A stretch of DNA of 64,000 bases from the sequence record OZ346158.1; one strand, given 5' to 3'. The DNA comes from a phage. The position numbers and the translations under genes were made by a program. The notes below the pieces were generated by a model. That model saw nothing but the letters and a program-made list of their open reading frames with translations. It was not told the origin of the DNA and ran no database searches. Below are positions 22,427 through 64,000 of this stretch, in pieces; position 1 is the stretch's first letter, and the number at the start of each line of letters is the position of its first letter.

Positions 22427-22798
22427 ATGGAATTTATTATTTTGGCTGTAGTAGTTGCCTTGTTCAACGCCTGGATCGCTGGCAAGATAGGTAGATCCGC
22501 TTTTCTATGGTTTGTTATATCTATTTTCCTGGGAGTGGTTGCAACTATTGTATTGGTTATCCTTGCAATTGTTGACAAGGGGAATAATAGAAAGGGTAAA
22601 GTATTTTCAGACCTGTACGACGCTCAAACGTTTGTCAACGCCTATTATAGTGATCTTCCAGTCTCCCTACGTTGCAGCCTTGCACAACAGGTTTTCGATG
22701 AAGCTAAAACCAGAGATCACGCCCATGAGATTTGTTTAACTGAGGCGGATCGCCTATTTGAGAGGAATAGAAAATATGTGGACCAGCCGTTTAAATAA
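22427..22798 (+). CDS. hypothetical membrane protein
   Basis: ATG 22427 after aaagaggta; two predicted TM helices. Confidence 0.5.
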   Translation: MEFIILAVVVALFNAWIAGKIGRSAFLWFVISIFLGVVATIVLVILAIVDKGNNRKGKVFSDLYDAQTFVNAYYSDLPVSLRCSLAQQVFDEAKTRDHAHEICLTEADRLFERNRKYVDQPFK

Positions 22799-22851
22799 TG
22801 CCACGTTAATTAACCCCTTTAGTGAAGATTTGAAGCCAGCCGCCTGGCGGG

Positions 22852-23136
22852 ATGGATTCAATAACGAAAGCTTTATTTTCAGGCCTGATCTTAAGGAATT
22901 TTATAACAATGGATCGAACAACGACAGAGATAATTTTTCTTGTAATGTGCGTGGTGATAATACTCCTGGGGGCCATTGCAAACCACGTCACTGCTAACAG
23001 GAGGAAAGGGGAGACGATGACACCCAAGGATAAGCCCCGTACCGATAAGGCGCGCCGTGTTATGGTATGGCTTGAGATCATCGCCCTTGAAATATTGTTA
23101 GGCGTAGGGATGTATTTTATCGCTGTAAGTAATTGA
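22852..23136 (+). CDS. hypothetical small membrane protein (start uncertain)
   Basis: Hydrophobic segments; best RBS aggaggaaagg precedes internal ATG near 23016. Confidence 0.35.
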   Translation: MDSITKALFSGLILRNFITMDRTTTEIIFLVMCVVIILLGAIANHVTANRRKGETMTPKDKPRTDKARRVMVWLEIIALEILLGVGMYFIAVSN

Positions 23137-23276
23137 TAACGGCCCCGATCCCTGGGGCCTAACTTTTCAAATTTTTTTCTCCCTGAGTGTTGCAATCCGA
23201 TCCAGAATATGGATAATAACAATCAACGGGGAGACACTCCCCACCGCATAGACAAAGTTCCAAAAGGAGAAACAAA

Positions 23277-23477
23277 ATGAGCAACAATATCCGCGTTATT
23301 AACTTCAAAAAAGAAGAAAAAATTGCCGTGCTGATTGACGGTCAAGAAATCTTTAAAGGTGATTATGAAGATCATCAAACGGCGATTAGTATCACTCGCG
23401 TGATTGGTTACCATAATTTTTACCCTCAAGGCGCTGAGGCAGCAGTAAAACGAATTAAAGAGATTGTAGGCCTGTAA
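23277..23477 (+). CDS. hypothetical protein
   Basis: 66 aa; RBS aaaggagaaac; preceded by GGGGAGACACTCCCC hairpin. Confidence 0.55.
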   Translation: MSNNIRVINFKKEEKIAVLIDGQEIFKGDYEDHQTAISITRVIGYHNFYPQGAEAAVKRIKEIVGL

Positions 23478-23527
23478 AATTTATTTTTAGATGGCCTTGA
23501 CTCCAGGGCCATCAATAAAGTAAATTT
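23478..23527 (+). repeat. 48-bp intergenic cassette copy 3
   Basis: GATGGCCTTGACTCCAGGGCCATCAATAAAGTAAAT, one mismatch relative to copies 1 and 2. Confidence 0.7.
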
Positions 23528-23568
23528 AAACCCTGTTAAAATAATCAGTGCAAAAAGGAGTAATGATC

Positions 23569-23868
23569 ATGTTTATCCAGGCTAATAATCTTTATTTCTT
23601 TGATGGTCAGATCGTAGACGGCGTGGAGGTGGAAATCACCGGGTGCCCTGGCGGTCAGGTTATGACTTTTCGGAATAATGCCTTTGATGATTCTCATATC
23701 GTTATGAGAATGGAAGTTAGTAAGCTGGATGACAAGAAAACACTCATTGATTATTCCGTGAAAGATCATCCAGACTACCACATGATCTATGGTGATTTGT
23801 GCATTGTTGACCGTGACAAGGTGGGCGGCATTGTGATCGCTATTGTGAACGATGTTTTCTCAAACTAA
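23569..23868 (+). CDS. hypothetical protein
   Basis: ORF track 23548..23868; ATG 23569 after aaaggag. Confidence 0.5.
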   Translation: MFIQANNLYFFDGQIVDGVEVEITGCPGGQVMTFRNNAFDDSHIVMRMEVSKLDDKKTLIDYSVKDHPDYHMIYGDLCIVDRDKVGGIVIAIVNDVFSN

Positions 23869-23885
23869 TTTCAGCAGGTGATTTT

Positions 23886-24236
23886 ATGAAAGTAAAACTA
23901 TATTACCTTAATGAGCTTAACCCCCTTGCCCAGGTCCGCGCCATGGCTAATACCTTGATTTGTGAGAAATCTGTATATTGTGTTGAGCTTAACTCCATGC
24001 GTGAACGTCTCAAAGGTGGTTACTTTGACATCCATGCTGCAATCAACGGCCTGAATATGGAATTTATCCGCTTACGTAACAGCCGCCAGAATCTGGGAAG
24101 AATGGAACAAGATCCGGCCCACCTTCGTAAGCTGGTTATTGAAAATCATCTAATGTTTAATGCCGATGGTGATTATTACCATTTTCACCGTAAACGCTGG
24201 TACCGTAGCGGCAATATAGGAAAGAATGCAAAATAA
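23886..24236 (+). CDS. hypothetical protein
   Basis: 116 aa; followed by terminator. Confidence 0.5.
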   Translation: MKVKLYYLNELNPLAQVRAMANTLICEKSVYCVELNSMRERLKGGYFDIHAAINGLNMEFIRLRNSRQNLGRMEQDPAHLRKLVIENHLMFNADGDYYHFHRKRWYRSGNIGKNAK

Positions 24237-24271
24237 GGCCCCTGGCAGGGCCTGCAGCGATATAATCACAT

Positions 24272-24306
24272 AAAGGCTATGCGGTTGCATAGCCTTTATT
24301 ATTTTG
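24272..24306 (+). terminator. rho-independent terminator
   Basis: AAAGGCTATGC-GGTT-GCATAGCCTTT followed by ATTATTTT. Confidence 0.7.
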
Positions 24307-24444
24307 GCGTTACAGCGGCCCCCAAGGCGCTTAAAAAAATTTTTAAAGAAGTACTTGCATCAAGTCCTACAATATGGATAATAAAGGGTGTCGGGGGGGC
24401 GGTGAGGCCTCCAATCATTAACCGGATAGATAGGAGTTAAAACC

Positions 24445-24729
24445 ATGGCTATTGTTACCGTTGGCGATGTAGTAGAAATGGAAGCCAAATACTTAAAAGC
24501 TGGTATGCATATCATACGGAATGATCAAGAATTGTTATTAACCATGGTTGAATATAATCCCGGTCAGGATTATCCAAGCATTGACTACTTTTTCCAGTAT
24601 GTTGATGAAGAATTAAAAGAGGATGAGGCTTATCAGGGTGAATTTTGTAATTTCTTTTGCCCTGATGAGGTTGTAAAAGTTATCTATCAACCTGGCGTAC
24701 CTTTCCCGCTGCACGCTATCAACAAATAA
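24445..24729 (+). CDS. hypothetical protein
   Basis: 94 aa; RBS ATAGGAGTTAAAACCATGG. Confidence 0.55.
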   Translation: MAIVTVGDVVEMEAKYLKAGMHIIRNDQELLLTMVEYNPGQDYPSIDYFFQYVDEELKEDEAYQGEFCNFFCPDEVVKVIYQPGVPFPLHAINK

Positions 24730-24784
24730 ACCTGGCGGGGCCGAAAAGGCCCCCAATTATGAAAATAAAGAGAGGCAAATCATC

Positions 24785-25018
24785 ATGATGGAACAAATTA
24801 AACGCGCCGAGGCTATTAATGGCAACGTGATCTATTTTGTCAGCAAAAACGAAAAAGGCGTACCCTATGCGGCGGTAATAGTACAGCCTGACGGCGATTA
24901 TTGGTGTACTGTGTACGGCGCTTATTCTTTTGGGCGTCCAGTGCATGATAAAATTTTGAAAGTAGCGAACCCTACCGGGAAAAATATCACAGCAGAAAAA
25001 TTTTTTGAAAATAGTTGA
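24785..25018 (+). CDS. hypothetical protein
   Basis: 77 aa; RBS aaagagaggcaaatcatc. Confidence 0.55.
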   Translation: MMEQIKRAEAINGNVIYFVSKNEKGVPYAAVIVQPDGDYWCTVYGAYSFGRPVHDKILKVANPTGKNITAEKFFENS

Positions 25019-25042
25019 CATGACCATATAAGACTGTAGTAT
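25015..25042 (+). promoter_or_regulatory. sigma70-like promoter (TTGACA-16-TAGTAT)
   Basis: Upstream of a 59-aa ORF at about 25090..25269. Confidence 0.5.
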
Positions 25043-25779
25043 ATAAATCAAAGGGGCAAGCCCCACCAACCACAAAGAGGATAAAAATCATGGCTATTAT
25101 TGCAAAGACTGAGATCGTAGGCTTGGATTCTATTCTCCTCGCATATGAGGAAGCTATAGAAATGTATGTGGTTTCCTATGGTGAGTATATCCGTGAATAT
25201 AAATCTATTGATCTGGCTTTTGAATGTTATATTCGCCAGGTTAATAAAGCGTACGATGATTATCGTTAAAATAGTTTGAAAACAAACAACCATCTTACAA
25301 AGCATAATACATAAGGCGGTGGAATGGTCCGCCACCTGGAACAAGAAGAGGAAAACAAAATGAAACAGAAATTAATTGATGCGGTGATCCTGGTTATTGC
25401 CCTGGGTATTGGCCTGATTGCAACCATGGCTAATGTGATCTTGTCTTCCAACGGTATCGGGTGAGGTTGGCAAATGATCACTAACAAAACAGGCAAGCGG
25501 AATTTTTACTCAACTTACAGATCGGCAAGCCTGAGATCTGGTATTGCACTAAAACACCACGTGACGAAATGAAAGACTTCACCGCCACGCTGCAACGGGT
25601 AAAGATATCCATCACGCAGAAAAAGGCCTTGATAGTGGTGGAAGGTGAGATCCCTCAAACCGTTGTTATAGTTGAGCGTACAGCATAGTTTAATTTATAC
25701 CGATACCCGAAAATTAACCAACAAAGCATAAACAGGCGGTTACCGCCGCCTTAAACGTAGCAGAAAGAGGATAGACACA

Positions 25780-30466: not shown

Positions 30467-30721
30467 TCACAGCTCTACAATATTTGCATCTGACCCTACC
30501 CCAAAGGCATAATAGGACTCTTCCCCGAAATAATATTCAGGTGCACCAGCGGTGATCAGGTCTGCTCCTAAGATAAACACTACGTTGTGGCCTACATAAC
30601 TGTGATGTTGCCGAACAGGATCATCCCACGGCAACCCTTCAAAGTATACCGCAGGAACGACCTTTCCCTTCAGGAAGGATTGTCCCAAGTAGACGTTAGA
30701 ATCAAGAATTTTAACCTTCAT
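30467..30721 (-). CDS. hypothetical protein, MKVK-x-L paralog family member
   Basis: MKVKILDSNVYLGQ...GADLITAGA...IVEL. Confidence 0.55.
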   Translation of the reverse strand: MKVKILDSNVYLGQSFLKGKVVPAVYFEGLPWDDPVRQHHSYVGHNVVFILGADLITAGAPEYYFGEESYYAFGVGSDANIVEL

Positions 30722-30938
30722 GATTGTCCTCCACTATCTCTACATCCTCACCTAGGGCAAAGTTGTAGGTCCACTGACTGTCAAAGCATTCCTGAGATGC
30801 ACCAGCGGCAATAAGATCTGCCCCTTTTATTTTTAAAAGGTCGGGGTAATCTTCGTTAGGGACAGCAGTAAACACTTTCCCCACTAAGGGCTCCTGACCA
30901 ATATAGAAGCTCGAATCTAAAACTTTAACTTTCATCAA
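30711..30938 (-). CDS. hypothetical protein, MKVK-x-L paralog family member
   Basis: MMKVKVLDSSFYIGQ...KGADLIAAGA...EIVED. Confidence 0.55.
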   Translation of the reverse strand: MMKVKVLDSSFYIGQEPLVGKVFTAVPNEDYPDLLKIKGADLIAAGASQECFDSQWTYNFALGEDVEIVEDNHEG

Positions 30939-38868: not shown

Positions 38869-38978
38869 TGTTGCACCCCCTCTTCATCTTCATGATGTTT
38901 CTTTTCACGCTTGTGTTTTTTCTTAAGCTCAAGCGCAATCTCTTTCTTGTACGCCTTCTTCAAGGCTTTTTTAGCCAT
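38865..38978 (-). CDS. hypothetical small lysine-rich protein (37 aa)
   Basis: ATG preceded by agaggagg; MAKKALKKAYKKEIALELKKKHKREKKHHEDEEG; below ORF-track cutoff. Confidence 0.35.
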   Translation of the reverse strand: MAKKALKKAYKKEIALELKKKHKREKKHHEDEEGVQQ

Positions 38979-39040
38979 TTGGCACCTCCTCTGCTTTCAT
39001 TACGGCAATTATAACCAACTCAACAAAGCTTTGTCAACAA

Positions 39041-39514
39041 CTAGTCTACCTGAACCCAACCGCCTGATACTTTTTTAAACATTCTTTGGTTATCACTGCC
39101 TCGGAACGGTTTCTTGGTTGGTAAATCTTTTACATACTTACCGTCAATGATGATATCAGCCAGTTTAAGAACATCACTAGAGATATGGTCAAATGTGAAC
39201 CCAGTATATACAAGAATAGTTTTCTTGTCACCAAATTTTTCCTTAATTTTCTCCATCAGGCTAATAATATCTGGCTCATTATAGTATGCTAAGGGTTCTC
39301 CACCCAGCAGAGAGATACCGCACACAGACGGGTTATCTAAATCTGACAAGATTTTTTGCAAGTCTTCTTCAGTGAACTCCCTCCCCTTATCTTTTGACCA
39401 AAATGCCTGATTAAAGCAACCAGGGCAAGCGTGTGGGCACCCAGATACCCACAAGGCAGTTCTAATACCTGGTCCTTCGGTGTAAGATATTTCTGTGTAT
39501 CCAGCAATGTTCAT
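39041..39514 (-). CDS. nrdG: anaerobic ribonucleotide reductase activating protein (radical SAM)
   Basis: CPHACPGC radical-SAM cluster motif, 157 aa, adjacent to nrdD. Confidence 0.85.
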   Translation of the reverse strand: MNIAGYTEISYTEGPGIRTALWVSGCPHACPGCFNQAFWSKDKGREFTEEDLQKILSDLDNPSVCGISLLGGEPLAYYNEPDIISLMEKIKEKFGDKKTILVYTGFTFDHISSDVLKLADIIIDGKYVKDLPTKKPFRGSDNQRMFKKVSGGWVQVD

Positions 39515-39690
39515 AGATACTCCGCATCACATTTAGGGCAATGCCAAATAAAATCGTCTAGTGCCTTGCACCAACGAAGATTACAACTACAGCCGCACTT
39601 GCAAATTTTATAAATACCTGATGACATACTGCACCTCCTAGCTCACTGTGTGTCAATAATATGCCACATCCTTGTGGCTTTTGTCAAGAA

Positions 39691-40935
39691 TCAGCAACCA
39701 CAACTTCCGTAGTGCTTAACTCGCTCGATAACTTCCGCTTGCTTACCTTTATTGTAAGGACGGGAGTTAGGACTGGAAAGGTATCCAGACACACGTCGAA
39801 TTACACTGATCGTTCCCTCTTCATGGTTTCCACACTCTGGGCATACAAAGCCTTTAGCTGTTGCACTGAACTCACCAGAGAAACCACACTTGAGACATTT
39901 ATCCACAGGTTGGTTAATACCAAAATACATAATGTGTTTATACCCGAAGTCAACAAGAGCCTCTAAAGCATCCAGGTTGTTTTTCAGGTTAGGTGTTTCT
40001 ACGTATCCGATGTTGCCACCAGAGGAGATCATAGCAAAACCTTCCTCATACTCCCACTTATCAAAAGGAGAGCTATTTATCCATACTGGCTGATGGAAAC
40101 TGTTGGTGAGATATTCATGCTCGTGCTTCAACACTTCCGGATATTCACGATCCAGACAGGTTGCAGCTTTATAGCATAGACTCTCAGAAGGAGTGCCGTA
40201 CAAGCTAAATGCTAGTCTACTTTCCTTCTTGTATCGCTCACAAGCATCTCTCATGTGCTGAAGGATTCCAAGAGCTAAAGCCTTGTCACCCTCTCTGCCC
40301 AAAATCTGACAGGTTTCATACACACCGATATACCCAATACTGATGGAAGCGTACCCGTCATAGAAGAGTTTATCAATACTCTCTTCAGGATCCAGGCGAG
40401 CAAGAGCGCCTTCACACCACATGATGGGGTTCTGCCCTGCCTTTGTTCCTTTTAGACGATTAACCCTTACAAGGTGAGCCTCGTATGCAAGATCCAAGTA
40501 TTCGTCAAGAACTGCAAAGAAATCAACACCTTCCGTCTTGGCTTTTGCCGCAATCATTGGCAGGTTAAGGCTAACAACGCCTAAGTTAAATCTGCCAAGG
40601 TATTTCTCCTCGCCTGTTTCCAAGTCATTGTATTTGCTAAGAAAACTCCTGCAACCCATGCTAGTTACTTTGCCATCTGTCGAGCCTGTCACTTTTCTAT
40701 TTAGTGGTACAGATACGAAGTCAGGATAGATACGTTCTGCACAGCATTCCAGAGCTAATCGTTTCAAATCATAGTTAGGATCCCCAGGGTTCATGTTGAC
40801 ACCCTCTTCCAGGAAGAACAGCACTTTAGGGAACACAGGTGTGATACGTTCTTCACCAAGACCCATTTTGTGGACTTTCAGGTAGTTTTTGGTAATCATT
40901 CTACCAAAGACCGAGGTATCCAGTCCTAAACTCAA
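39691..40935 (-). CDS. nrdD: anaerobic ribonucleoside-triphosphate reductase, exon 2 (C-terminal part; 5' end approximate)
   Basis: FSLYGTPSES, C-terminal Cys cluster and glycyl-radical motif IRRVSGYL; frame continues from intron. Confidence 0.85.
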   Translation of the reverse strand: MSLGLDTSVFGRMITKNYLKVHKMGLGEERITPVFPKVLFFLEEGVNMNPGDPNYDLKRLALECCAERIYPDFVSVPLNRKVTGSTDGKVTSMGCRSFLSKYNDLETGEEKYLGRFNLGVVSLNLPMIAAKAKTEGVDFFAVLDEYLDLAYEAHLVRVNRLKGTKAGQNPIMWCEGALARLDPEESIDKLFYDGYASISIGYIGVYETCQILGREGDKALALGILQHMRDACERYKKESRLAFSLYGTPSESLCYKAATCLDREYPEVLKHEHEYLTNSFHQPVWINSSPFDKWEYEEGFAMISSGGNIGYVETPNLKNNLDALEALVDFGYKHIMYFGINQPVDKCLKCGFSGEFSATAKGFVCPECGNHEEGTISVIRRVSGYLSSPNSRPYNKGKQAEVIERVKHYGSCGC

Positions 40936-55947: not shown

Positions 55948-56154
55948 TTATTCAAAGAAATGGGTGCGAGGGCAGGAACCTGCCTCGCCTTGTTTCACAA
56001 GCTCGTAGAGCTCACCTTGGCTTGTCTCATAAAGGCAAATACGTTTACCATTGTCCCGATATACATCGACAAGATACGCTGTTTCACCTGCAAACACGAC
56101 ACCACAGGCCAGACATGCTGCCATGAACAAAATTGCCAACAGAAAATCTTTCAT
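55948..56154 (-). CDS. small signal-peptide/lipoprotein-like protein (spanin candidate)
   Basis: MKDFLLAILFMAACLACGVVFAG hydrophobic N-terminus with Cys; near endolysin. Confidence 0.35.
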   Translation of the reverse strand: MKDFLLAILFMAACLACGVVFAGETAYLVDVYRDNGKRICLYETSQGELYELVKQGEAGSCPRTHFFE

Positions 56155-56222
56155 GGTTAAACCCTCCCTAACATTGTATGAGGTAACAATACCACGTCCG
56201 TGTGGTCATGTCAATGATACTG

Positions 56223-56921
56223 TTACAATCTTTCAGCAAGAGCCTTTGCGTAACACGCTTCAGCAGACTCTTTGGTGTCAAACCTGCCTAGCGTTTTTCC
56301 TCTGAAAGTTACTTTCCATTTGCCCCTATCTGCTTCAAATCTGACACCTCTAGATTTATCCCTCCCTAAAGGCTGTCCACGATATTCCCTGACAAACGTG
56401 CCACTTTCAAAAGACTTTTGAGCAGCAAGGGCCTCTTCTAAGGTATCGTATTCTCCTAGGTCTTTCTTATAGTAATGACCTACCTTACCAAAAGCAGCAT
56501 ACCTTCCAGTTCTAGCATGAAAATATACACCCAAGTGTCCAGTGTTAGATTTAGGTATCTTGCGTGCCAGGCATCCGTCATCTGCCGCCTTTTTTGCGTT
56601 TTCTTCTGGTGTTAACAGTTGTAGGTTTTCTATCCTGTCATCAGCAACACCATCGGAATAGAAAAGTGGCTTTATGTGATCAACTTCGTACCCTTCTGGA
56701 ATTGGTCCATAATGCATCTCCCACACCAATCTATGCCTGTAGTAATGCACGCCGCGATAGATTATATCCCTGTACCCGTCCATGTTAGTACATCCAGCCT
56801 CCTTTCCCATCAGTTGAGGTTTGTTTTTTGGTGGGGACTTCCAAAACAACCTTCCAGTGCCTGTATCGTATCTAAAGACACTCCACCAGTCAATCCCGTT
56901 ACTCATCTGTAACAACTCCAC
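56223..56921 (-). CDS. HNH homing endonuclease with tandem AP2 DNA-binding domains (freestanding)
   Basis: HRLVWEMHYGPIPEGYEVDHIKP...ENLQLLTPEEN HNH core; two AP2-like repeats (GVYFHARTGRYAAFGK..., GVRFEADRGKWKVTFRGK...). Confidence 0.8.
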   Translation of the reverse strand: MELLQMSNGIDWWSVFRYDTGTGRLFWKSPPKNKPQLMGKEAGCTNMDGYRDIIYRGVHYYRHRLVWEMHYGPIPEGYEVDHIKPLFYSDGVADDRIENLQLLTPEENAKKAADDGCLARKIPKSNTGHLGVYFHARTGRYAAFGKVGHYYKKDLGEYDTLEEALAAQKSFESGTFVREYRGQPLGRDKSRGVRFEADRGKWKVTFRGKTLGRFDTKESAEACYAKALAERL

Positions 56922-57387
56922 CTGCCTTCTTAAAGATCTCCAGCATCTTGTCTATACTTTCTGCTCGCTGATTGTACAGCTTTCCAGCCCCTGGCGGTGG
57001 TGGGAAGCTTGCCCAGCGGCTGCGGCATTTATAAATGGCCTGATGAATACGCCCTTCATCAATGTCGGCGAGAGCCTTGCACTCACGGATCAGTTGCAAC
57101 GCAATCTTGTCCTGACTGTCAGGGCCAAAATCTGGTAATCCTAACTGTTTCATGTAGTGTTTAGCAAACTTCTCCAAAACCTGGTAACGCCCAGCAGCGG
57201 AGGAGGTAAGTTTAGCATTTAGCTTAACGTAAACACCGGGATGCTTGCTGTAATCGCTGAACAGCTTGCCTCCGACTATGACATCGTACCCCCGATCCTT
57301 GGTAGGTTGTCTACCATTATCTGTGCCTTCCGAATATGCGATCATATCCAAGAAAGCTTTTCGTTGAACATTTTTATCAAGTTTCAT
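56899..57387 (-). CDS. endolysin (lambda R-type lytic transglycosylase)
   Basis: QRKAFLDMIAYSEGTDNGRQPTKDRGYDVIVGG...FSDYSKHP nearly collinear with lambda R (QRKAFLDMLAWSEGTDNGRQKTRNHGYDVIVGG) as recalled. Confidence 0.85.
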   Translation of the reverse strand: MKLDKNVQRKAFLDMIAYSEGTDNGRQPTKDRGYDVIVGGKLFSDYSKHPGVYVKLNAKLTSSAAGRYQVLEKFAKHYMKQLGLPDFGPDSQDKIALQLIRECKALADIDEGRIHQAIYKCRSRWASFPPPPGAGKLYNQRAESIDKMLEIFKKAGGVVTDE

Positions 57388-57511
57388 TTTTCATACTCTC
57401 CAGTTTACTCATAACTAACCCGATCAACAACACTGCATAGTGTGGTTATGTAGGTGCCAATTGAAAAACCATCATTCAATTGGCTACCGTTACCTACTGA
57501 ACCTCCCTACA

Positions 57512-58795
57512 TCATTCCAGCACCTCCCAAGTGTCTGGGTTAACATTTCGGACGCAGATACCGACAGGGAATTGGTAGTTGTTGTCTTCTGTCCTTGCTT
57601 GATATTTGAAGGTGACAAACTTGCCGATCATTTCCTGCATCCTGTCATAGCTACGCTCCTCGTGCGTGCCTTTCATCTTCATTTTAACAATAACACCTTC
57701 CTTGTCAACACAGATAAGAACACCTTCATCATTCTTATCTTTCTCAACGTCAATAACTTTCACCTCTGCGTCGTTGAACTTTTTCCATTTCAATGCTTCA
57801 GATGTTCGCTGACCGTACTCGTATTTACCGCAGAAATTACGCATGATAGTACCTTCATATCCTTCGGACATGAATATACCAACAGATTCTTCGCAATGAT
57901 CAACTGTGTACGCAAGCTCTGCGTCAACAACCTTGATATGGTCAAGCATCAGAGTGGTAACGGTATCCTCTGCATCCATAAGATCCTTGCAGCGTCCAGA
58001 CTCTGTTTCTGGATCCCACCACACCTTGTCGCTAGGAATATCAAAAATGTGATACTCCAGATCGTAGCTACAGTACCCACCGTAACGCAAATCATCACGA
58101 ACAGGCTCAACATCGACAGGAATATCTACCTTGTTGAAGTTTTTGTATGTTGATAAGCCTGCCTTAATTGCTGCATGACGGCGTTTTTTATCTGCCTCAT
58201 AGTCTTTATCGATCTCGGCCTGAATCTCTTCCTGTGTGCGCCACCGTTTAGCAAGAGACACTATTTTCTGCAAAGGAAGACCATGAATGTATAGTTCCCC
58301 ATCAAGTTGTTTAATCCCAGTGGTAGAATGGAAAGAACGAAGTTGCTCTAAAAGCTTTCCTTGAATAGGGTAGGACTTATTACCACGGGAAATAAATTTA
58401 GGCTCACCATTTTGGAAAACAACAAGCAGACGAAGGCCATCTAACTTACGCAAGATCCAGCAAGGTAATTTAAGTGCCTTGCCACGCTTCAGGTAGTCAT
58501 GCACCAGCATGGGTAAAAGATCAACACCCTGCTCGCAATCTTCCATGTTTTCAACATACCCCAGACGGACTTGTTTTTCCCACTTGCTGATAGCCTCAAG
58601 CTCGGCCTGTTGCTCAGCTGTAGTCTCGTTGGCACGACCTACGTTCTTAGGTGTGCATACCGTCTCTTTGTACTGCAGTTTACCATCAAGCTTGCCAAAC
58701 TCTACGATAACCTTATCACCATCCGTGAATACTTTCCACTGTTGGTAGCTGCCATCTTTATTCAGTGCGTACAGTGTTGTTTTGATCTGATGCAT
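57512..58795 (-). CDS. ATP-dependent DNA ligase
   Basis: Motif I KLDGLR (K-x-DG-x-R), DGELY, EGTIM, KWKKF nucleotidyltransferase motifs. Confidence 0.85.
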   Translation of the reverse strand: MHQIKTTLYALNKDGSYQQWKVFTDGDKVIVEFGKLDGKLQYKETVCTPKNVGRANETTAEQQAELEAISKWEKQVRLGYVENMEDCEQGVDLLPMLVHDYLKRGKALKLPCWILRKLDGLRLLVVFQNGEPKFISRGNKSYPIQGKLLEQLRSFHSTTGIKQLDGELYIHGLPLQKIVSLAKRWRTQEEIQAEIDKDYEADKKRRHAAIKAGLSTYKNFNKVDIPVDVEPVRDDLRYGGYCSYDLEYHIFDIPSDKVWWDPETESGRCKDLMDAEDTVTTLMLDHIKVVDAELAYTVDHCEESVGIFMSEGYEGTIMRNFCGKYEYGQRTSEALKWKKFNDAEVKVIDVEKDKNDEGVLICVDKEGVIVKMKMKGTHEERSYDRMQEMIGKFVTFKYQARTEDNNYQFPVGICVRNVNPDTWEVLE

Positions 58796-59064
58796 TACTC
58801 GGCCTCTTCCTTAAAAATTTTAAACATCTCTTCTTTACTCATTACCAACCAGTCTCCCATAAAGTCAACTAGCCAATCTCCCTGGTACAAGACAAGGTTA
58901 CCAAAAGGCTCGACAAGCTCACACATGCGACGAAGATCTCTGGTCCGAACAGGTGACGATGTAAACACACCTGTATCAATCCACCGTTGCAGATCAGATA
59001 CTGATGAAGAGCTTCCGTCAAACTGATGTGCTTCTACAGGTTTAGCAAGATTAAATAACGGCAT
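58795..59064 (-). CDS. hypothetical protein
   Basis: 89-aa ORF. Confidence 0.5.
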   Translation of the reverse strand: MPLFNLAKPVEAHQFDGSSSSVSDLQRWIDTGVFTSSPVRTRDLRRMCELVEPFGNLVLYQGDWLVDFMGDWLVMSKEEMFKIFKEEAE

Positions 59065-59359
59065 TGCAGTCCTCCTTCTGTAGTAGGTCTTTTATAGGAT
59101 AAACAAGTAAGTGTGGGTCGTAATAACGTATAGTCCTATTCTGCCACACTATGAACTTTATTACAACCAAATTTACAATATCTTTATCACCATGTAGCCC
59201 AACACACACATTTGTCCATATTTTGTGGTTGAAGACCTTGCTATCGATGTAGATTTTAGTGTCAAACTTATCTTCCATTCTACCAATAAGTTTGATCAGC
59301 TCCTTCATCTGGTCGCCAAACACAGCATCTTTTTCAAGATCTCTGGAATGCTTGTACAT
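59051..59359 (-). CDS. hypothetical protein
   Basis: 102-aa ORF. Confidence 0.5.
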   Translation of the reverse strand: MYKHSRDLEKDAVFGDQMKELIKLIGRMEDKFDTKIYIDSKVFNHKIWTNVCVGLHGDKDIVNLVVIKFIVWQNRTIRYYDPHLLVYPIKDLLQKEDCNAVI

Positions 59360-59421
59360 AACTGACTACCTCACTGCATACTTTCCATAATAAGTAAAGC
59401 CGGGTAATCCCGGCTATGTTG

Positions 59422-60135
59422 TTAAATATACTCTGTTACATCCTTGAAGCTCGAAGGCTTCATAATCTTACCTTTACTGTCAAGGAATATAATAACTTTA
59501 TTGCCGTTGTAGAACTCCTCTTTAGCAACGAAACCTTCGTAGCGACCACCAAAACGACGCTCAAGATCTTTAATCTCCAACTCGATGAGTTGTTCAGCAG
59601 GCATATCTGCACTGGCACCGTGTGAATGCCGTAGATGGTTGATCCGTGCAAACTTACTGTCATTAGATTTTAGAACCTTCCGCATCATCCCACACACATC
59701 CCCGCTAAGCTGGAACAGCAAAGCTGTTGATAACTCCGCTAGTCGGTAAGCTGACGCTCTTTGCTTGGATGTGTTTTTCGCAGCGATCAGTGTATCATAG
59801 AACTCACCGATCTTGAACTTAAGACCTCGCGGATTATCAAACAGGTTTGACCACTTTTCGTGGTTATCATTAACAAGATAAGCTGCATAACTTGTGACAA
59901 CGTGAAGATCGCAGGCCTCTTTTAGCAGGTGATCTCCACCATCACCTTTCTCCAGCTCTTCCAAAACCTCATTGAACTCTTCCTCAATGAAGCTAAGCTG
60001 TAATTCGAATGGTGTGTATGATTTTTTCACTTTAGCTGCCACACGGTTCCAGTTTTCCACCCAGTTGGCAGACCAAAGGTAGTTTTCAGGCTGGGACAGT
60101 TTTTCCAGGTTGTCGATCAGTTTAGTATTCAGCAT
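59422..60135 (-). CDS. putative MazG-like nucleotide pyrophosphohydrolase
   Basis: EEEFNEVLEELEKGD resembles the MazG E-E-x-x-E metal-binding helix; weak. Confidence 0.35.
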   Translation of the reverse strand: MLNTKLIDNLEKLSQPENYLWSANWVENWNRVAAKVKKSYTPFELQLSFIEEEFNEVLEELEKGDGGDHLLKEACDLHVVTSYAAYLVNDNHEKWSNLFDNPRGLKFKIGEFYDTLIAAKNTSKQRASAYRLAELSTALLFQLSGDVCGMMRKVLKSNDSKFARINHLRHSHGASADMPAEQLIELEIKDLERRFGGRYEGFVAKEEFYNGNKVIIFLDSKGKIMKPSSFKDVTEYI

Positions 60136-60148
60136 TAAAGGTCTCCTT

Positions 60149-60910
60149 TTAAAGTTCCATAAAGTTTTCTACAGTTTCAATAAATGCTTTATCAGAGAAA
60201 GCGTCAACAGCACCGTTAAACCATACAGGGATCCCGCGATCCTCATATTGATAAAGGTCGCTACGTGAAATGCCACTTCCATCTGCACTCTGCGAATCAT
60301 ACTTGTTTACAATCAGCAGTTTTGTGCCTTTACAAGTAGCAGGAAACAATTCCCAGTTAAAATTAATAACTGTGTTAGAACAACCTACCAGGATCACCAT
60401 ATCATTGCTTGTGAGAGATGTCAACAGGTCATACATGTCTGTATACTTAGGAGCAACCTCACCGAAGAACACTACATTGGGCTTAACCCAGGTATACTTG
60501 CCTGTATCTACCTCCGTGTATCCGATATTTTTAATTACATCATTACCTTCAGCATCTTCGTAGGTGATTTCAGGCAAATACCCGTGGACATGTAAAATAT
60601 CTTCATGTTTTACACCAGCACGCTCCAGCAAATCATCTACATTGGTAGTAAGGTTGATCACACGACCAGACCAGCGGGAATACCACTCAGCGATCCGAAG
60701 ATGTGCAAGGTTAGGATCAACACTGCCCAGAGCTACACGACGTGCATTGTAAAAGTCATGCACCTTATAGTAGTTCTTGGCAAAGGTGTGGATGTTGCAC
60801 ACCTCATCGATGCTGAAATTCTCCCACATTGCAGTGCTACCAGATCGGAAAGTGGGAATACCAGATTCAGCGCTCAAACCAGCACCGGAGATAATAATCA
60901 GTCGTCGCAT
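60149..60910 (-). CDS. Sir2-family NAD-dependent deacetylase-like protein
   Basis: ISGAGLSAESGIPTFRSG (Sir2 NAD-binding G-A-G-x-S-x-x-S-G-I-P-x-F-R) and ...HVHGYL. Confidence 0.8.
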   Translation of the reverse strand: MRRLIIISGAGLSAESGIPTFRSGSTAMWENFSIDEVCNIHTFAKNYYKVHDFYNARRVALGSVDPNLAHLRIAEWYSRWSGRVINLTTNVDDLLERAGVKHEDILHVHGYLPEITYEDAEGNDVIKNIGYTEVDTGKYTWVKPNVVFFGEVAPKYTDMYDLLTSLTSNDMVILVGCSNTVINFNWELFPATCKGTKLLIVNKYDSQSADGSGISRSDLYQYEDRGIPVWFNGAVDAFSDKAFIETVENFMEL

Positions 60911-60918
60911 AAGTGTCC

Positions 60919-61269
60919 TCAGTAGATGTTTTGTTTAATCTCTATTCCAAACTTCTTGAATGAGTCAGCAGCAAGCATAAATTTACGAGCTGCCGATGGA
61001 TTAGAAGTATGCACGAAAATAATCACGTTGTCAATAAGTGGTGGCTTTCCGAATACAAGTTTCTCCTCTAGCGCAGAGAAGCAGTCGTACCCTTCAAGCA
61101 CTTCACCTAGATCATTGTCAAAATGCCACTCAGAAACGCGCCTGTAGAGCTTTCTATTATCGTTAATAAAATCCATGAACTCAGAAGAGTTCTTCAGCCA
61201 AAGAGCATCTTGGATTCCGTAATTTGACGGATCTCTCAAGTCATCTAGCCACACAATCAACTTCTTCAT
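60919..61269 (-). CDS. hypothetical protein
   Basis: ORF track 60919..61299; ATG at 61269 overlaps RNA ligase stop (ATGA). Confidence 0.5.
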   Translation of the reverse strand: MKKLIVWLDDLRDPSNYGIQDALWLKNSSEFMDFINDNRKLYRRVSEWHFDNDLGEVLEGYDCFSALEEKLVFGKPPLIDNVIIFVHTSNPSAARKFMLAADSFKKFGIEIKQNIY

Positions 61270-62201
61270 TGCATATAGTCCTCGTTGTGAAAATAGCAAT
61301 CAAGTATCTCACGGCGTTCCTGCTCCAGGAGGCAGTTCCACACATCTTCTGTGTAATTGCTACGAATGAAGTTTACCATGCCATAAAACTCTTCGTCAAT
61401 ACGTTTAAAGATATCATCATCCCAAATCTTCCAAGCTTTACCCCTCATTACGGCCTTCCGTGCCAAATAGTATGGAGACTTGATCTTCAGCTGCAGGTCA
61501 TAAGGGTAGTAAGGCTTACGGATCATATACCCTTCGCCCCTTGTTTCTGCAGCTAATTCTTTTGCATAGCTGAACGGGATTTCACGCAAAGTGTGAGGAC
61601 GTTTTGCACCAAGGTATTTGGCAATCCCATCTAAAGCTGCTTCTGGTAGCATTATTCCAGAATCATTATATCTGCAACCTATCAAATATGCGCCATGGTC
61701 TTCTTGAACAATATGCGGATCTGAAGGGTGACAAATTTCAAACATGAATGTCATGTTTTCATTGCCCATAACCTTCTTGATAAGATCTAAATTACCACAT
61801 TGCTCTTGGATGGTTTCCTTTGCAAGGTTACAATATGGAGAATCAAGAGACCCGGTTGTTGAGAACAATAGGTCACCTTTATGAGATGATACCACACCAA
61901 GGAATCCGTTCTTTTTCTCTACCGCAGTCACAAGCTTATTGTCAGGCAGGTTGGTGGAGTTTTCTCCCAAGTTAAACACTTTTGTGAAGGGCCATGCCAC
62001 AACATTTCCTTCATTACCTACAACAATGCCTCGGCACTCCAGTAAACGAGGGGACAAATGCCATAAATTGTTGTAAAATACTTTTCTAGCATATTTATAG
62101 ATCTTTAACCCGAGATCTGGGTAATACCTACTGGTTACAAGACCTTTGTCAACTAGGTCGTCTGCATTAAAATACTTCATCATACGTTCCTCATTTGTCA
62201 T
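61266..62201 (-). CDS. RNA ligase, T4 Rnl1-like
   Basis: LLECRGIVV / KVFNLGEN / KKNGFLGVV parallel T4 Rnl1 ALECRGIMF / KFFNLNEN / KEDGSLVST (motif I K-x-[DN]-G) as recalled. Confidence 0.75.
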   Translation of the reverse strand: MTNEERMMKYFNADDLVDKGLVTSRYYPDLGLKIYKYARKVFYNNLWHLSPRLLECRGIVVGNEGNVVAWPFTKVFNLGENSTNLPDNKLVTAVEKKNGFLGVVSSHKGDLLFSTTGSLDSPYCNLAKETIQEQCGNLDLIKKVMGNENMTFMFEICHPSDPHIVQEDHGAYLIGCRYNDSGIMLPEAALDGIAKYLGAKRPHTLREIPFSYAKELAAETRGEGYMIRKPYYPYDLQLKIKSPYYLARKAVMRGKAWKIWDDDIFKRIDEEFYGMVNFIRSNYTEDVWNCLLEQERREILDCYFHNEDYMQ

Positions 62202-62244
62202 TTTGTCAGTCTATCCTGCCACACAAATAACCTAGTGTCAACAC

Positions 62245-62273
62245 TTGAAATTAACAAAACAGTTAGATATACT
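62245..62273 (+). promoter_or_regulatory. sigma70-like promoter (TTGAAA-17-TATACT) in divergent intergenic region
   Basis: Upstream of + strand kinase gene; - strand RNA ligase diverges from the same region. Confidence 0.5.
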
Positions 62274-62301
62274 ATCGTTGAAATTAAAACGGAGGGTCAC
62301 T

Positions 62302-62712
62302 ATGTCTAAAATGCTATATATCGTGCGTGGTCTACCAGGGTCTGGCAAATCAACACTGGCAAATGCGCTATCTTTAGAGGGTCTGTATCCACATTTTGAG
62401 AACGACATGTTCTGGTATGACGATGACGGCAATTACAACTGGGATGCAAGTAAAGTAACACTCGCAGCGAAATGGTGCAAAGATAACGTAGAAGATATGA
62501 TGCGTATGGGATACGACCGTATCGTGGTAAGTAATACGTTTACAAAAGAAAAACATGTGCAGGAATATGTTGACATGGCAATCAGTCATGGGTATAGTTA
62601 TACCGTGATCGTGGTTGAAAACCGCCACGGTAATAAAAGCATTCATGATGTTCCAGACAAGGTTGTGGATCGTATGGAACGCCAGCTTAAAAACTGCATT
62701 AAACTTAAATGA
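62302..62712 (+). CDS. P-loop polynucleotide kinase-like protein (AAA_33-type)
   Basis: Walker A GLPGSGKST near N-terminus; ATG 62302 after ggaggg (ORF track 62245..62712); next to RNA ligase and phosphatase. Confidence 0.55.
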   Translation: MSKMLYIVRGLPGSGKSTLANALSLEGLYPHFENDMFWYDDDGNYNWDASKVTLAAKWCKDNVEDMMRMGYDRIVVSNTFTKEKHVQEYVDMAISHGYSYTVIVVENRHGNKSIHDVPDKVVDRMERQLKNCIKLK

Positions 62713-62719
62713 GGAATGT

Positions 62720-63274
62720 ATGAAATACTTTGTAACAAGCGACACACACTTTCTCCACCAGCGGGTCATGGAGTTTGATTCATGTCAAAAACACAGATCT
62801 CAGTATGATCACAATCTTGACAGTATGAATGCGGGAATCATCGCCGAATGGAACTCTGTTGTGTCACCTGCAGACACTGTGTTCCACTTGGGAGATATTG
62901 CGTGCACTAATGATAAGAATATCAACAACTTACTTCCAGATATTCTAAATATGTTGAACGGACATATTATTCTTGTTCGTGGCAACCATGACACACGGAC
63001 GACTGTCAGAATTATGAAAGAGTTCGGTCATGAGGTTGTAGATTATTACGAGCTTCGCCACAACAAGAATTTGATCTGTATGAGCCATTACCAATTTGCA
63101 AAGTGGAACAGAAAGCCTCACGGATCAGTCCAACTGTTCGGTCATGCTCACGGAACCACACAACAGTTGTTTGGCAGGCAGCTTGATGTCGGTTGGGATG
63201 TGTGGGGGAGACTCTTACCATTAGAAGAGGCATACCGTATTGCAATGAGTCTTGCTATTGACAGCGGGGAGTAA
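62720..63274 (+). CDS. calcineurin-like metallophosphoesterase
   Basis: VTSDTHF, GDIACTND, RGNHD, GHAHG metallophosphatase motifs; ATG 62720 (ORF track 62615..63274). Confidence 0.65.
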   Translation: MKYFVTSDTHFLHQRVMEFDSCQKHRSQYDHNLDSMNAGIIAEWNSVVSPADTVFHLGDIACTNDKNINNLLPDILNMLNGHIILVRGNHDTRTTVRIMKEFGHEVVDYYELRHNKNLICMSHYQFAKWNRKPHGSVQLFGHAHGTTQQLFGRQLDVGWDVWGRLLPLEEAYRIAMSLAIDSGE

Positions 63275-63321
63275 TCCCTGCTATTTTAAAGAAAATTGCC
63301 ACACAAGGAGAATCAGGAGAT

Positions 63322-63672
63322 ATGAAAGATGGGGATAAGCTGCTATATCTTAAAGTCCCCCTTGAAATACTGTCTATGTCAAAAGTTTTGAATGACACAA
63401 CTGGGGAGGTTGTTGTTCTTGACTTGTATGACAAGATCGTATACTGCTACCTGCACAACTGGTATAAGCTTGGAGGAAGTTCACGCTTCACACCCAGCAC
63501 AAGGAAAATTGCAGCAGATGTTGGGATAAAGAAAACAAAAGCAGCAGCGTGCGTTAAAACTTTAGAATGTGCAGGAGTGGTTGAAATATCCACACAAGGG
63601 AGAGGTAAAAGATGCACATTTTCCAAAGTTTTGCCACCAGAAGAGGTTATTCGAATGTCAACAACTGGTTAG
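63322..63672 (+). CDS. putative HTH DNA-binding protein
   Basis: STRKIAADVGIKKTKAAACVKTLECAGVV helix-turn-helix-like segment; followed by iterons. Confidence 0.45.
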   Translation: MKDGDKLLYLKVPLEILSMSKVLNDTTGEVVVLDLYDKIVYCYLHNWYKLGGSSRFTPSTRKIAADVGIKKTKAAACVKTLECAGVVEISTQGRGKRCTFSKVLPPEEVIRMSTTG

Positions 63673-63749
63673 ACCAGTAAAAACTTAAATATCTGTACTA
63701 TAAGGATTCGTATGTTTTATGTTCGCTCTGGAACAGAGGTTAGTAACTG

Positions 63750-63830
63750 TCCGTGATACGGACACTACTGTCCGTCACGCGGACACATCTGCCCGTAATA
63801 CGGACACTAACTGTCCGTGATACGGACACA
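63750..63830. repeat. four tandem palindromic iterons (CTGTCCGTGATACGGACAC family) followed by AT-rich tract
   Basis: CTGTCCGTGATACGGACAC at about 63757 and 63808 (exact), variants CTGTCCGTCACGCGGACAC and CTGCCCGTAATACGGACAC between; each has GTCCGT/ACGGAC dyad. Confidence 0.7.
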
Positions 63831-64000
63831 TAAAGAATATAACTAAAATAACTAAATAATAAAAAATAAAAGATCTAGTACTTATGGTACTAAGTACATA
63901 TACTTAACTTATGTAGAATATACTAGATCCTAAGTACCATGTTTTAAATTTATTACTTACTATGGGTAGTGTCGGCCCTTCATTGGCACTCGCCTACGAG

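Follow-up and report, generated by a model that had tools for sequence, protein, structure and literature searches.

A putative RNA-repair cassette of six genes was analyzed in a 64,000-nucleotide stretch of phage DNA (sequence record OZ346158.1; the whole stretch is called the window below), where it lies at positions 59422-63274. From the families of the proteins, their intact active sites, the structure of the operons and the conserved linkage of the genes, all of which were observed here, we infer that the cluster probably constitutes a phage module for RNA end healing and sealing. Its core comprises an Rnl1-family RNA ligase, a P-loop kinase and a metallophosphoesterase, and these three enzymes very likely heal and seal RNA ends together; that tRNAs and anticodon nucleases are the specific target is proposed with less confidence. 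A sirtuin (Sir2), a cREC protein and a MazG-like protein are encoded alongside, and their assignment to a NAD+-dependent branch acting on RNA 2'-phosphates is doubtful, being the weakest part of the model.

The cluster itself is already known, since it is annotated in GenBank and was described in 2022 by comparative genomics. Positions 59400-63700 share 99.9% identity with Escherichia phage AlexBoehm (Bas56, MZ501048, Vequintavirus, V5-like), and this 4.3-kb stretch matches 122 deposited phage genomes, of which 121 show at least 90% identity to it; between the cREC protein and that of phage V5 itself, the identity is 93%. The Bas56 record carries the names "RNA ligase," "polynucleotide kinase," "putative phosphoresterase" and "sirtuin domain NAD-dependent deacetylase," and the paper on the BASEL collection makes no mention of these genes. 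The six-gene neighborhood was published with phage V5 as its prototype (Iyer, Burroughs, Anantharaman and Aravind, Viruses 2022, PMC9503650, section 3.7.3). All six genes of this V5/Mydo-type sirtuin RNA-repair neighborhood were found within 59422-63274 of a V5-like phage, and the system studied here is the same, with no essential difference. An earlier reading of the window, made from its letters only (the sequence-only reading), had reported the ligase, kinase, phosphoesterase and Sir2 genes; these four open reading frames (ORFs) were indeed recovered where it had placed them and in the families it had named, with Pfam scores above the gathering cut-offs. It had missed the cREC and MazG-like genes, and had presented an annotated and published cluster as new. 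Its observation is thus real but incomplete, and the interpretation that it gave holds for the three core enzymes and lacks support where Sir2 is concerned. The features of the cluster are as follows.

59398..59415, minus strand: terminator-like hairpin, GC-rich, with a 7-bp stem including 6 GC pairs and a weak T-run (consensus scan, pattern match only)
59422..60135, minus strand: MazG/HisE-like protein, 237 amino acids (PHROG 671 "nucleotide pyrophosphohydrolase," E = 1.9e-21; AGGAG Shine-Dalgarno sequence)
60149..60910, minus strand: sirtuin (Sir2), 253 amino acids (PF02146, E = 6.9e-28)
60919..61269, minus strand: cREC, 116 amino acids (PF20274, E = 4.3e-14)
61266..62183, minus strand: Rnl1-family RNA ligase, 305 amino acids (PF09511, E = 1.4e-14)
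62184..62301, no strand: divergent spacer of 118 bp between the ligase and kinase starts
62302..62712, plus strand: P-loop kinase, 136 amino acids (AAA_33, E = 1e-10; PHROG 505 "polynucleotide kinase," 4.7e-10)
62720..63274, plus strand: metallophosphoesterase, 184 amino acids (Metallophos_2, E = 1.2e-6; Metallophos, E = 3.9e-6)

Ligase, Kinase and Phosphoesterase

The ligase matched RNA_lig_T4_1 (PF09511) over the full 227-position profile, with 54.9 bits against a cut-off of 28.3. The homologue searches returned 540 ligase, 972 Sir2 and 604 cREC sequences, and the observation of these genes cannot be put down to chance; searches of the PDB with the single ligase and kinase sequences were uninformative, and both proteins were compared with solved structures by means of family profiles. 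A profile of 25 ligase homologues (41-49% identity, all of about 300 amino acids and from phage-sized contigs) found T4 Rnl1 (2c5u) as its best match, with E = 5.9e-16 over residues 51-250. Residues R51, K68, F70, K90, G93, E149, E217, G218, K233 and K235 were invariant in these homologues, and they line up with the T4 Rnl1 motifs ecRG, kfFN, KeDG (which holds the adenylylated lysine), FEf, EGyv and KiKS. Structure prediction, which the sequence-only reading had named as a check and which was run on the ligase, led to the same family: the AlphaFold2 (AF2) model (predicted local distance difference test, pLDDT, 93) ranked T4 Rnl1 2c5u first in Foldseek (E = 1.4e-12, 21% identity, template-modelling score TMq 0.64), followed by archaeal Rnl3 and the fungal Trl1-LIG domain, the identity with Trl1-type domains being 17-19%, too low for a reliable sequence alignment. 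The protein is thus a member of the Rnl1 family, predicted to act as an ATP-dependent RNA ligase, and not a T4 RnlA equivalog.

In the kinase, G13, G15 and K16 of the P-loop as well as D35 and R108 were invariant in six homologues, and by their position D35 and R108 would correspond to Asp35 and Arg126 of the T4 enzyme. The top PDB match of its family profile was Pnkp1 of the Capnocytophaga Pnkp1-Rnl-Hen1 system (4xrp, 4.2e-6), followed by T4 polynucleotide kinase (PNK; 1ly1, 8.1e-5, over the whole length) and the kinase domain of CthPnkp (4gp7, 0.011), while all nucleoside monophosphate (NMP) kinases had E > 0.1. These E-values are modest, and taken by themselves they are suggestive of a polynucleotide 5'-kinase; the strength of this assignment comes from the genomic context added to the sequence. 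An NMP kinase acting only on nucleotides, together with a protein phosphatase inactive on RNA ends, had been named in the sequence-only reading as the outcome that would speak against RNA repair; as far as computation can tell, the profile ranks, a gene fusion and the operon context (see below) all point instead to a polynucleotide kinase.

The phosphoesterase retains all five metal-binding motifs of calcineurin-like enzymes (DxH, GD, GNH[D/E], H and GHxH), with D8, H10, G58, D59, G88, N89, H90, H123, G141, H142 and H144 invariant, and it gave weak matches to PdeM and YfcE in NCBIfam. In line with what had been noticed from the letters, kinase and phosphatase are separate genes, and the latter encodes a binuclear metallophosphoesterase and no HAD-type enzyme; the three profiles named then, Rnl1 (here PF09511), AAA_33 and Metallophos, were each matched above cut-off in the profile searches. 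A 2',3'-cyclic phosphodiesterase or 3'-phosphatase activity is presumed for this protein from its conserved linkage to the ligase and kinase, not from homology.

Conserved Linkage in Phages and Bacteria

The linkage of the three core genes was evaluated in 80 ligase-anchored IMG/VR loci (36-49% identity), which were scanned with profiles of the other cassette proteins. A phosphoesterase was found in 64 of the 80 phage loci and a kinase in 52, another small P-loop ORF with the motif GVPGxGKS being present in a further 8, and several of the loci with no detected partner were incomplete sequences. The partners were all on the ligase strand and mostly contiguous, the commonest orders being phosphoesterase-ligase-kinase and kinase-ligase-phosphoesterase, as exemplified by Justusliebigvirus PHB05, Vibrio phage 5P1c and Pseudomonas phage PE09. 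The phosphoesterase is thus a constant partner of this ligase family (64/80), whereas it had been described as "occasional" (Iyer et al., 2022). The trio of ligase, kinase and phosphoesterase is also far more widespread than the sirtuin.

Bacterial orthologues were sought in one genome per species, which gave 62 loci (numbered L147-L208 in our set) from Neisseria, Moraxella, Cardiobacterium, Kingella, Eikenella and their relatives. Kinase and ligase form one ORF of about 495 amino acids in 56 of these 62 loci; the phosphoesterase lies within about 1.2 kb downstream in 52 of the 56 fused loci and beside the ligase in 54 of the 62 overall. Kinase and ligase are likewise joined in the single 737-position profile of PHROG 8238. 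In Neisseria flavescens (L153:2309-11404), genes for RtcR, Ro60/TROVE and a Thg1-like enzyme lie to one side of the trio and a Nudix gene to the other, and two YrlA Y-RNA-like genes stand upstream of the trio in Cardiobacterium valvarum (L200:2515-9592). RtcR is the regulator of the RNA-repair rtc operon and Thg1 is a tRNA 5'-end polymerase. As a side observation, the bacterial set resembles a repair operon of the rtc type with heal-and-seal enzymes in the place of RtcB/RtcA.

Gene fusion and location in an RNA-repair operon are the strongest support, short of an assay, for the trio acting on RNA. Together with the catalytic motifs, the solved relatives, the three-gene linkage and the RtcR/Ro60 context, the kinase-ligase fusion supports the earlier suggestion that the cluster holds a repair set resembling T4 Pnkp/Rnl1.

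Operon Organization

The six genes form two tight operons pointing apart, one with the ligase, cREC, Sir2 and MazG-like genes (minus strand), the other with the kinase and phosphoesterase genes (plus strand). Each gene is preceded by a Shine-Dalgarno sequence and the same-strand gaps do not exceed 13 nt: the ATG of cREC overlaps the ligase stop codon (ATGA), Sir2 begins 8 nt past cREC and the MazG-like gene 13 nt past the Sir2 stop. The divergence of ligase and kinase, and the position of the phosphoesterase directly after the kinase, had been rightly recognized from the letters, the spacer and gap being of 118 bp and 7 nt, respectively. By contrast, Sir2 does not lie directly beside the ligase, as had been thought, because the 116-amino-acid cREC gene (60919-61269) intervenes. 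For the ligase, previously placed at 61266..62201, the ORF and family stand, and the start is revised: the ATG at 62183 is the likely one, because a GAGGA Shine-Dalgarno sequence lies 4 nt upstream of it, the same start is used in GenBank and nothing comparable precedes 62201.

The consensus scan also found a sigma-70-like site at 62245-62273(+), upstream of the kinase (TTGAAA-17-TATACT, 10/12 matches, pattern match only), and no minus-strand sigma-70-like promoter for the ligase operon in the 118-bp spacer. The hairpin at 59398-59415 is likely to mark the 3' end of the ligase-cREC-Sir2-MazG operon, judging from its sequence and position.

Dispensability in a Close Relative

Transposon insertions have been mapped in the Vequintavirus Bas54 (HIDEN-SEQ preprint, 10.1101/2025.11.20.689424, Extended Data Table 8), in which the gene order is the same and the six proteins are 86-98% identical to those of the window. 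The classes assigned on E. coli K-12, all from this preprint, and the TA sites hit are as follows.

bas54_0206 (MazG-like): non-essential, 35/40 TA sites
bas54_0207 (Sir2): non-essential, 48/51 TA sites
bas54_0208 (cREC): "Intermediate," 16/21 TA sites
bas54_0209 (ligase): non-essential, 56/60 TA sites
bas54_0210 (kinase): non-essential, 33/36 TA sites
bas54_0211 (phosphoesterase): non-essential, 26/27 TA sites

The cluster is thus dispensable in the laboratory, which fits a conditional accessory role or a counter-measure. The same preprint (10.1101/2025.11.20.689424) reports that Bas54 is Mokosh-sensitive, and that bas37_0055, the PseT (Pnkp) orthologue of the T4-like phage Bas37, ranked with the most significantly depleted genes on a clinical E. 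coli isolate, with a log2 fold change of -1.90; natural isolates therefore carry defenses that demand phage RNA-end healing.

These data also bear on the possibility that the cluster performs no RNA repair at all, in which case the kinase would act on (d)NMPs, the phosphoesterase would dephosphorylate proteins or nucleotides, and the ligase homologue would serve in tail-fiber attachment like T4 gp63. Several GenBank records indeed use "RNA ligase 1 and tail attachment protein," a name copied from T4, the AAA_33 family is broad, and the closest solved structure of the phosphoesterase is a protein with no known function. Yet the N-terminal domain of T4 rnlA does not tolerate insertions, whereas the Bas54 ligase was hit at nearly all of its TA sites, and for this reason the ligase is unlikely to share the tail-fiber role of gp63. 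The kinase profile, moreover, ranks polynucleotide kinases above every NMP kinase, and kinase and ligase are fused in bacterial RtcR/Ro60/Y-RNA operons, so that a cluster devoid of any RNA-repair function is extremely improbable. The tail-fiber-attachment annotation of the ligase was rejected as an uncritical transfer from T4 gp63.

Sir2, cREC and the MazG-Like Protein

Sir2 matched PF02146 with 98 bits against a cut-off of 24, and G8, A9, G10, S15, G16, F20, R21, T88, N89, D91, H108 and G109 were invariant in 24 phage homologues. With NAD-binding and catalytic residues intact in the sequence, it is probably an active NAD+ consumer. The four zinc cysteines of sirtuins are missing: no Cys pair stands between H108 and the KPNVVFFGE motif, and the 24-sequence alignment contains no conserved quartet. 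Its best solved relatives are CobB (1s5p, 3.2e-21) and Sirt5, which are protein deacylases, and it scored below the cut-offs of all CobB-type models of NCBIfam.

cREC, defined by Iyer et al. (2021, PMC7824862), matched PF20274 with 53.4 bits against a cut-off of 27, and D8, D9, D50 and D52, at receiver active-site positions, as well as H86 and N89, were invariant in 30 homologues. The nearest solved folds to its AF2 model (pLDDT 94) are two-component receiver domains, although these relations are remote (E about 6e-3, TM 0.53-0.61 for the best five). Nudix-cREC fusions have been reported by Iyer et al.; the best 120 of the 604 homologues found here were single-domain throughout, with no such fusion among them. 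The MazG-like protein, a putative all-alpha nucleotide pyrophosphohydrolase, has a conserved C-terminal extension, and its residues E52, E53, E56 and D76 (EExxE...D) were invariant in eight homologues. It had no Pfam or NCBIfam match, and its profile gave a weak match to HisE (1yvw, E = 0.054) spanning the EExxE...D motif.

The surroundings of these three genes vary between phage lineages. Six Mydo/KB57-like phages carry a collinear array, phosphoesterase-ligase-cREC-kinase-Sir2, with the MazG-like gene 2-3 kb further on, and relative to this order the kinase and phosphoesterase genes are inverted in the Vequintaviruses. In T5 (L091:6389-12478), a sirtuin gene of the same Zn-less clade has a PhoH gene on its upstream side, and after it come the gene of a HAD_SAK_2 phosphatase ("Swiss Army Knife RNA repair," PF18143, 4e-20) and two DUF7415 genes; ligase, kinase, metallophosphoesterase, cREC and MazG-like genes were not detected within 10 kb of this locus. 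A tRNA gene was found within 1 kb in 11 of 80 cREC-anchored loci, a raw count with no background rate. Large tRNA arrays of T5-like and other phages contain cREC or border on it (Pectobacterium phage DU_PP_V, L005:4992-5336, and loci L233, L235, L227, L230, L236, L249, L278 and L289); the gene comes as near as 9 bp to a tRNA gene, often with no RNA ligase nearby.

Such locations would suit a module serving the RNA metabolism of the phage itself, through maturation or quality control of phage tRNAs, repair after a phage RNase, or RNA circularization or splicing. In Bas56, a tRNA array (Arg, Tyr, Lys, Thr, Ile, Pro) starts 2.9 kb past the phosphoesterase gene, outside the window, and the bacterial homologues of the trio are found in housekeeping or stress operons of the RtcR/Ro60 type and not in defense islands. 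No tRNA gene lies within the window, and an Rfam scan of 56000-64000 found no structured RNA. A required maturation step is however argued against by the non-essential class of five of the six Bas54 genes, cREC being "Intermediate"; the one well-studied precedent, T4 Pnkp/Rnl1, is a counter-defense, and the PseT of Bas37 is conditionally needed in a clinical isolate. We thus consider service to the phage's own RNA to be unlikely.

For Sir2, the sequence-only reading had put forward a counter-defense role, on the ground that Sir2 domains occur in several NAD-depleting defense systems. The protein could act, for example as a decoy or an inhibitor, against Thoeris, DSR or SIR2-HerA, and the presence of NAD-salvage genes near the ligase trio in related phages could be taken in the same sense, the former argument being a general fact only. 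A PADLOC search with Sir2 (E ≤ 0.001) matched no defense family, its closest relatives are CobB and Sirt5, and it falls in a clade of phage sirtuins associated with RNA-end enzymes, its conserved partners being RNA-end-processing enzymes (see also PMC9503650). A sirtuin is moreover unlikely to be an antidote to NAD depletion because it consumes NAD itself and, if active as is probable, would worsen the depletion. The known phage answers to NAD depletion are NAD-rebuilding pathways (NARP1-3, PMC13464706), not sirtuins, and no NAD-salvage gene is annotated within the window. The counter-defense proposal for Sir2 was thus not upheld, and we regard it as very unlikely.

The NAD-salvage genes themselves stand a few kb from the trio in PHB05 (L003:258-2956), Pseudomonas phage PE09 (L006:8931-12944) and a third phage locus (L009:1548-3427), and comprise either NAMPT with a ribose-phosphate pyrophosphokinase or a PnuC-type NMN transporter with an AAA_28 protein. 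Their proximity could reflect inherited gene order instead of a functional link.

Proposed Mechanism and Its Weak Points

In the mechanism that we propose for the core enzymes, the kinase would phosphorylate the 5'-OH end of a cut RNA, the metallophosphoesterase would remove the 2',3'-cyclic phosphate or 3'-phosphate to leave a 3'-OH, and the Rnl1-type ligase, adenylylated on Lys90, would then join the healed ends. Likely substrates would be tRNAs of the host, of the phage or of both, or else other RNAs of translation, once cleaved by ribonucleases of the host that require no metal (anticodon nucleases, for instance), and the module would be needed only on hosts with such a nuclease. A link of the cluster to PrrC or RloC would follow by analogy with T4, and a literature search for a connection between PrrC and Vequintavirinae found nothing relevant.

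cREC, the Zn-less sirtuin and the MazG-like protein, co-transcribed with the ligase, may constitute a lineage-specific, NAD+-using accessory branch. Operonic links of cREC to RNA ligases and to NAD+/ADP-ribose enzymes have been described, with the prediction that cREC opens 2',3'-cyclic or cyclic-ADP-ribose phosphates (Iyer et al., 2021, PMC7824862), and the ADP-ribosyltransferase activity of the sirtuin has been proposed to strip RNA 2'-phosphates in the manner of KptA/Tpt1 (Iyer et al., 2022, PMC9503650). Following these published hypotheses, cREC would open the cyclic phosphate, the sirtuin would, like Tpt1/KptA, use NAD+ to attach ADP-ribose to the 2'-phosphate left behind, and the pyrophosphatase or cREC would clear the ADP-ribose product. 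The specific version in which the Zn-less sirtuin is a Tpt1/KptA analogue, cREC a metal-independent receiver-fold 2',3'-cyclic phosphodiesterase, and the MazG-like protein the enzyme that clears ADP-ribose strikes us as rather improbable.

Several findings pull against the picture of a single RNA-repair module. The ligase scored 38 bits with the NCBIfam model of the T4 RnlA equivalog (TIGR02308), the cut-off of which is 242. Its motif V is followed by about 65 helical residues, versus about 130 in T4, and the profile alignment ends at T4 residue 250; the C-terminal domain of T4 Rnl1 confers tRNA specificity. At E ≤ 1, the phosphoesterase profile matched Aquifex aq_1665 (1xm7, 3.8e-18) and no other PDB entry, neither lambda phosphatase nor the phosphatase domain of CthPnkp being found, and because this sole clear solved relative is of unknown function, the RNA-end role of the phosphoesterase is assigned by context. 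We know of no target nuclease for the cluster. Between K-12 and the uropathogenic strains CFE303 and CFE311, none of the six Bas54 genes changed significantly upon resampling (log2 fold change, 0.13-0.43; adjusted p ≥ 0.75; 10.1101/2025.11.20.689424). Our literature search found no experimental work on cREC or on the phage sirtuin clade, and the 2'-phosphate-removal branch is not obviously needed if the whole cyclic phosphate is taken off by the phosphoesterase. Lastly, there is no general association of Sir2 with the ligase: among 58 Sir2-anchored loci, 12 have a ligase, and in 41, mostly T5-like, the other five cassette families were not detected within 10 kb; conversely, Sir2 is carried by 8, cREC by 9 and the MazG-like gene by 9 of the 80 ligase-anchored loci.

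The main rival explanation draws on this last point and supposes two unrelated modules, with the trio repairing RNA and Sir2, cREC and the MazG-like protein fulfilling a separate NAD+/ADP-ribose function as mere neighbors in a region of accessory genes. This function could be protein deacylation, ADP-ribosylation of host factors, or destruction of immune signals derived from ADP-ribose or made of cyclic nucleotides. Besides the isolated Sir2 loci, it is in line with the absence of a detected ligase within 10 kb in 65 of the 80 cREC-anchored loci, with the resemblance of Sir2 to the true protein deacylases CobB and Sirt5, and with the occurrence of MazG-like genes beside a DNA ligase in related phages that have no Sir2; a role of cREC in the processing of cADPr is also among the possibilities that Iyer et al. 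consider. However, the start of cREC overlaps the ligase stop and Sir2 follows 8 nt on in the same operon, cREC stands between ligase and kinase in the Mydo/KB57-like phages, the partner of Sir2 in T5 is an RNA-repair-type HAD phosphatase, and cREC genes lie within tRNA gene arrays. A pair of independent modules is accordingly a possibility to be taken seriously, without being the probable one. The preferred reading remains that of one RNA end-healing and sealing module.

Comparison With Known Systems

A functional parallel to this module is the T4 set formed by Pnkp (PseT) and Rnl1, which likewise combines a 5'-kinase, a 3'-end phosphoesterase and an Rnl1-family ligase, and to which the ligase and kinase are detectably homologous. 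By repairing tRNA, T4 Pnkp/Rnl1 counteracts the anticodon nuclease PrrC. The phage cluster has one gene for the kinase and another for the phosphatase, whereas T4 has one Pnkp; the phosphatase here is a binuclear metallophosphoesterase, whereas that of T4 Pnkp is an acylphosphatase of the HAD/DxDxT type; and the cREC, sirtuin and MazG genes are additional here. The Pnkp/Hen1 systems (C. thermocellum Pnkp and Capnocytophaga Pnkp1-Rnl-Hen1) share a P-loop kinase, a metallophosphoesterase-type phosphatase and an ATP-dependent ligase with the phage cluster, which differs from them by the absence of a Hen1 methyltransferase, by a different branch of phosphoesterase, by an Rnl1-type ligase and by the use of three separate polypeptides.

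The pair formed by the fungal and plant tRNA ligase Trl1 and the NAD+-dependent 2'-phosphotransferase Tpt1/KptA offers another likeness, as Trl1 contains an Rnl1-clade ligase domain and a polynucleotide kinase, and a NAD+-using enzyme is encoded alongside in the phage, a likeness on which the published comparison of the sirtuin with KptA is founded. The cyclic phosphodiesterase of Trl1 is however a 2H enzyme, where the candidates here are the metallophosphoesterase and cREC, and Tpt1 has the ART fold, where the NAD+ enzyme here is a sirtuin. As for the operons with RtcR, Ro60 (Rsr), Y RNA and RtcB-RtcA, they harbor bacterial orthologues of the ligase, kinase and phosphoesterase, with kinase and ligase as one protein, whereas RtcR, Ro60, Y RNA and RtcB are all missing from the phage cluster.

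Other Features of the Window

Past the phosphoesterase, a gene at 63322-63672 (+) encodes a small helix-turn-helix (HTH) protein, which scored below the cut-offs of HTH_36 and DUF6945 and matched a PHROG "replication initiation protein" at 8.5e-80; its Bas54 orthologue, of class "Intermediate," had an insertion read count of 13.6, versus 88-406 in the cassette genes. Elsewhere, about 2.5 kb at 22569-25092 have no annotated gene in the Bas56 record, and this gap lies about 3 kb before a change of sign in GC skew (between 28000 and 30000) and a switch in gene orientation. In Bas54, the HIDEN-SEQ preprint mentions an intergenic stretch of about 2 kb devoid of transposon insertions, which may or may not coincide with this gap. 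The Bas56 annotation further places a "ribosome hibernation factor" at 30585-30902 (-) and a PhoH-like ATPase at 38926-39714 (-), both of which add to the accessory genes of this phage that relate to translation or RNA.

Implications

The cluster offers a test bed for three predicted activities, namely those of a sirtuin that would act on an RNA 2'-phosphate, of a cyclic phosphodiesterase with a receiver fold and of a metallophosphoesterase that would heal RNA ends as a standalone enzyme, in a tractable E. coli phage for whose close relative Bas54 saturated transposon libraries exist. As the idea of the sirtuin as a Tpt1/KptA counterpart was proposed by Iyer et al. (2022), its demonstration alone would be new. 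Once identified, the host nucleases that the module defeats would help to explain the host range of V5-like therapeutic phages, and such a target would extend the single textbook case of phage tRNA repair, that of T4 versus PrrC.

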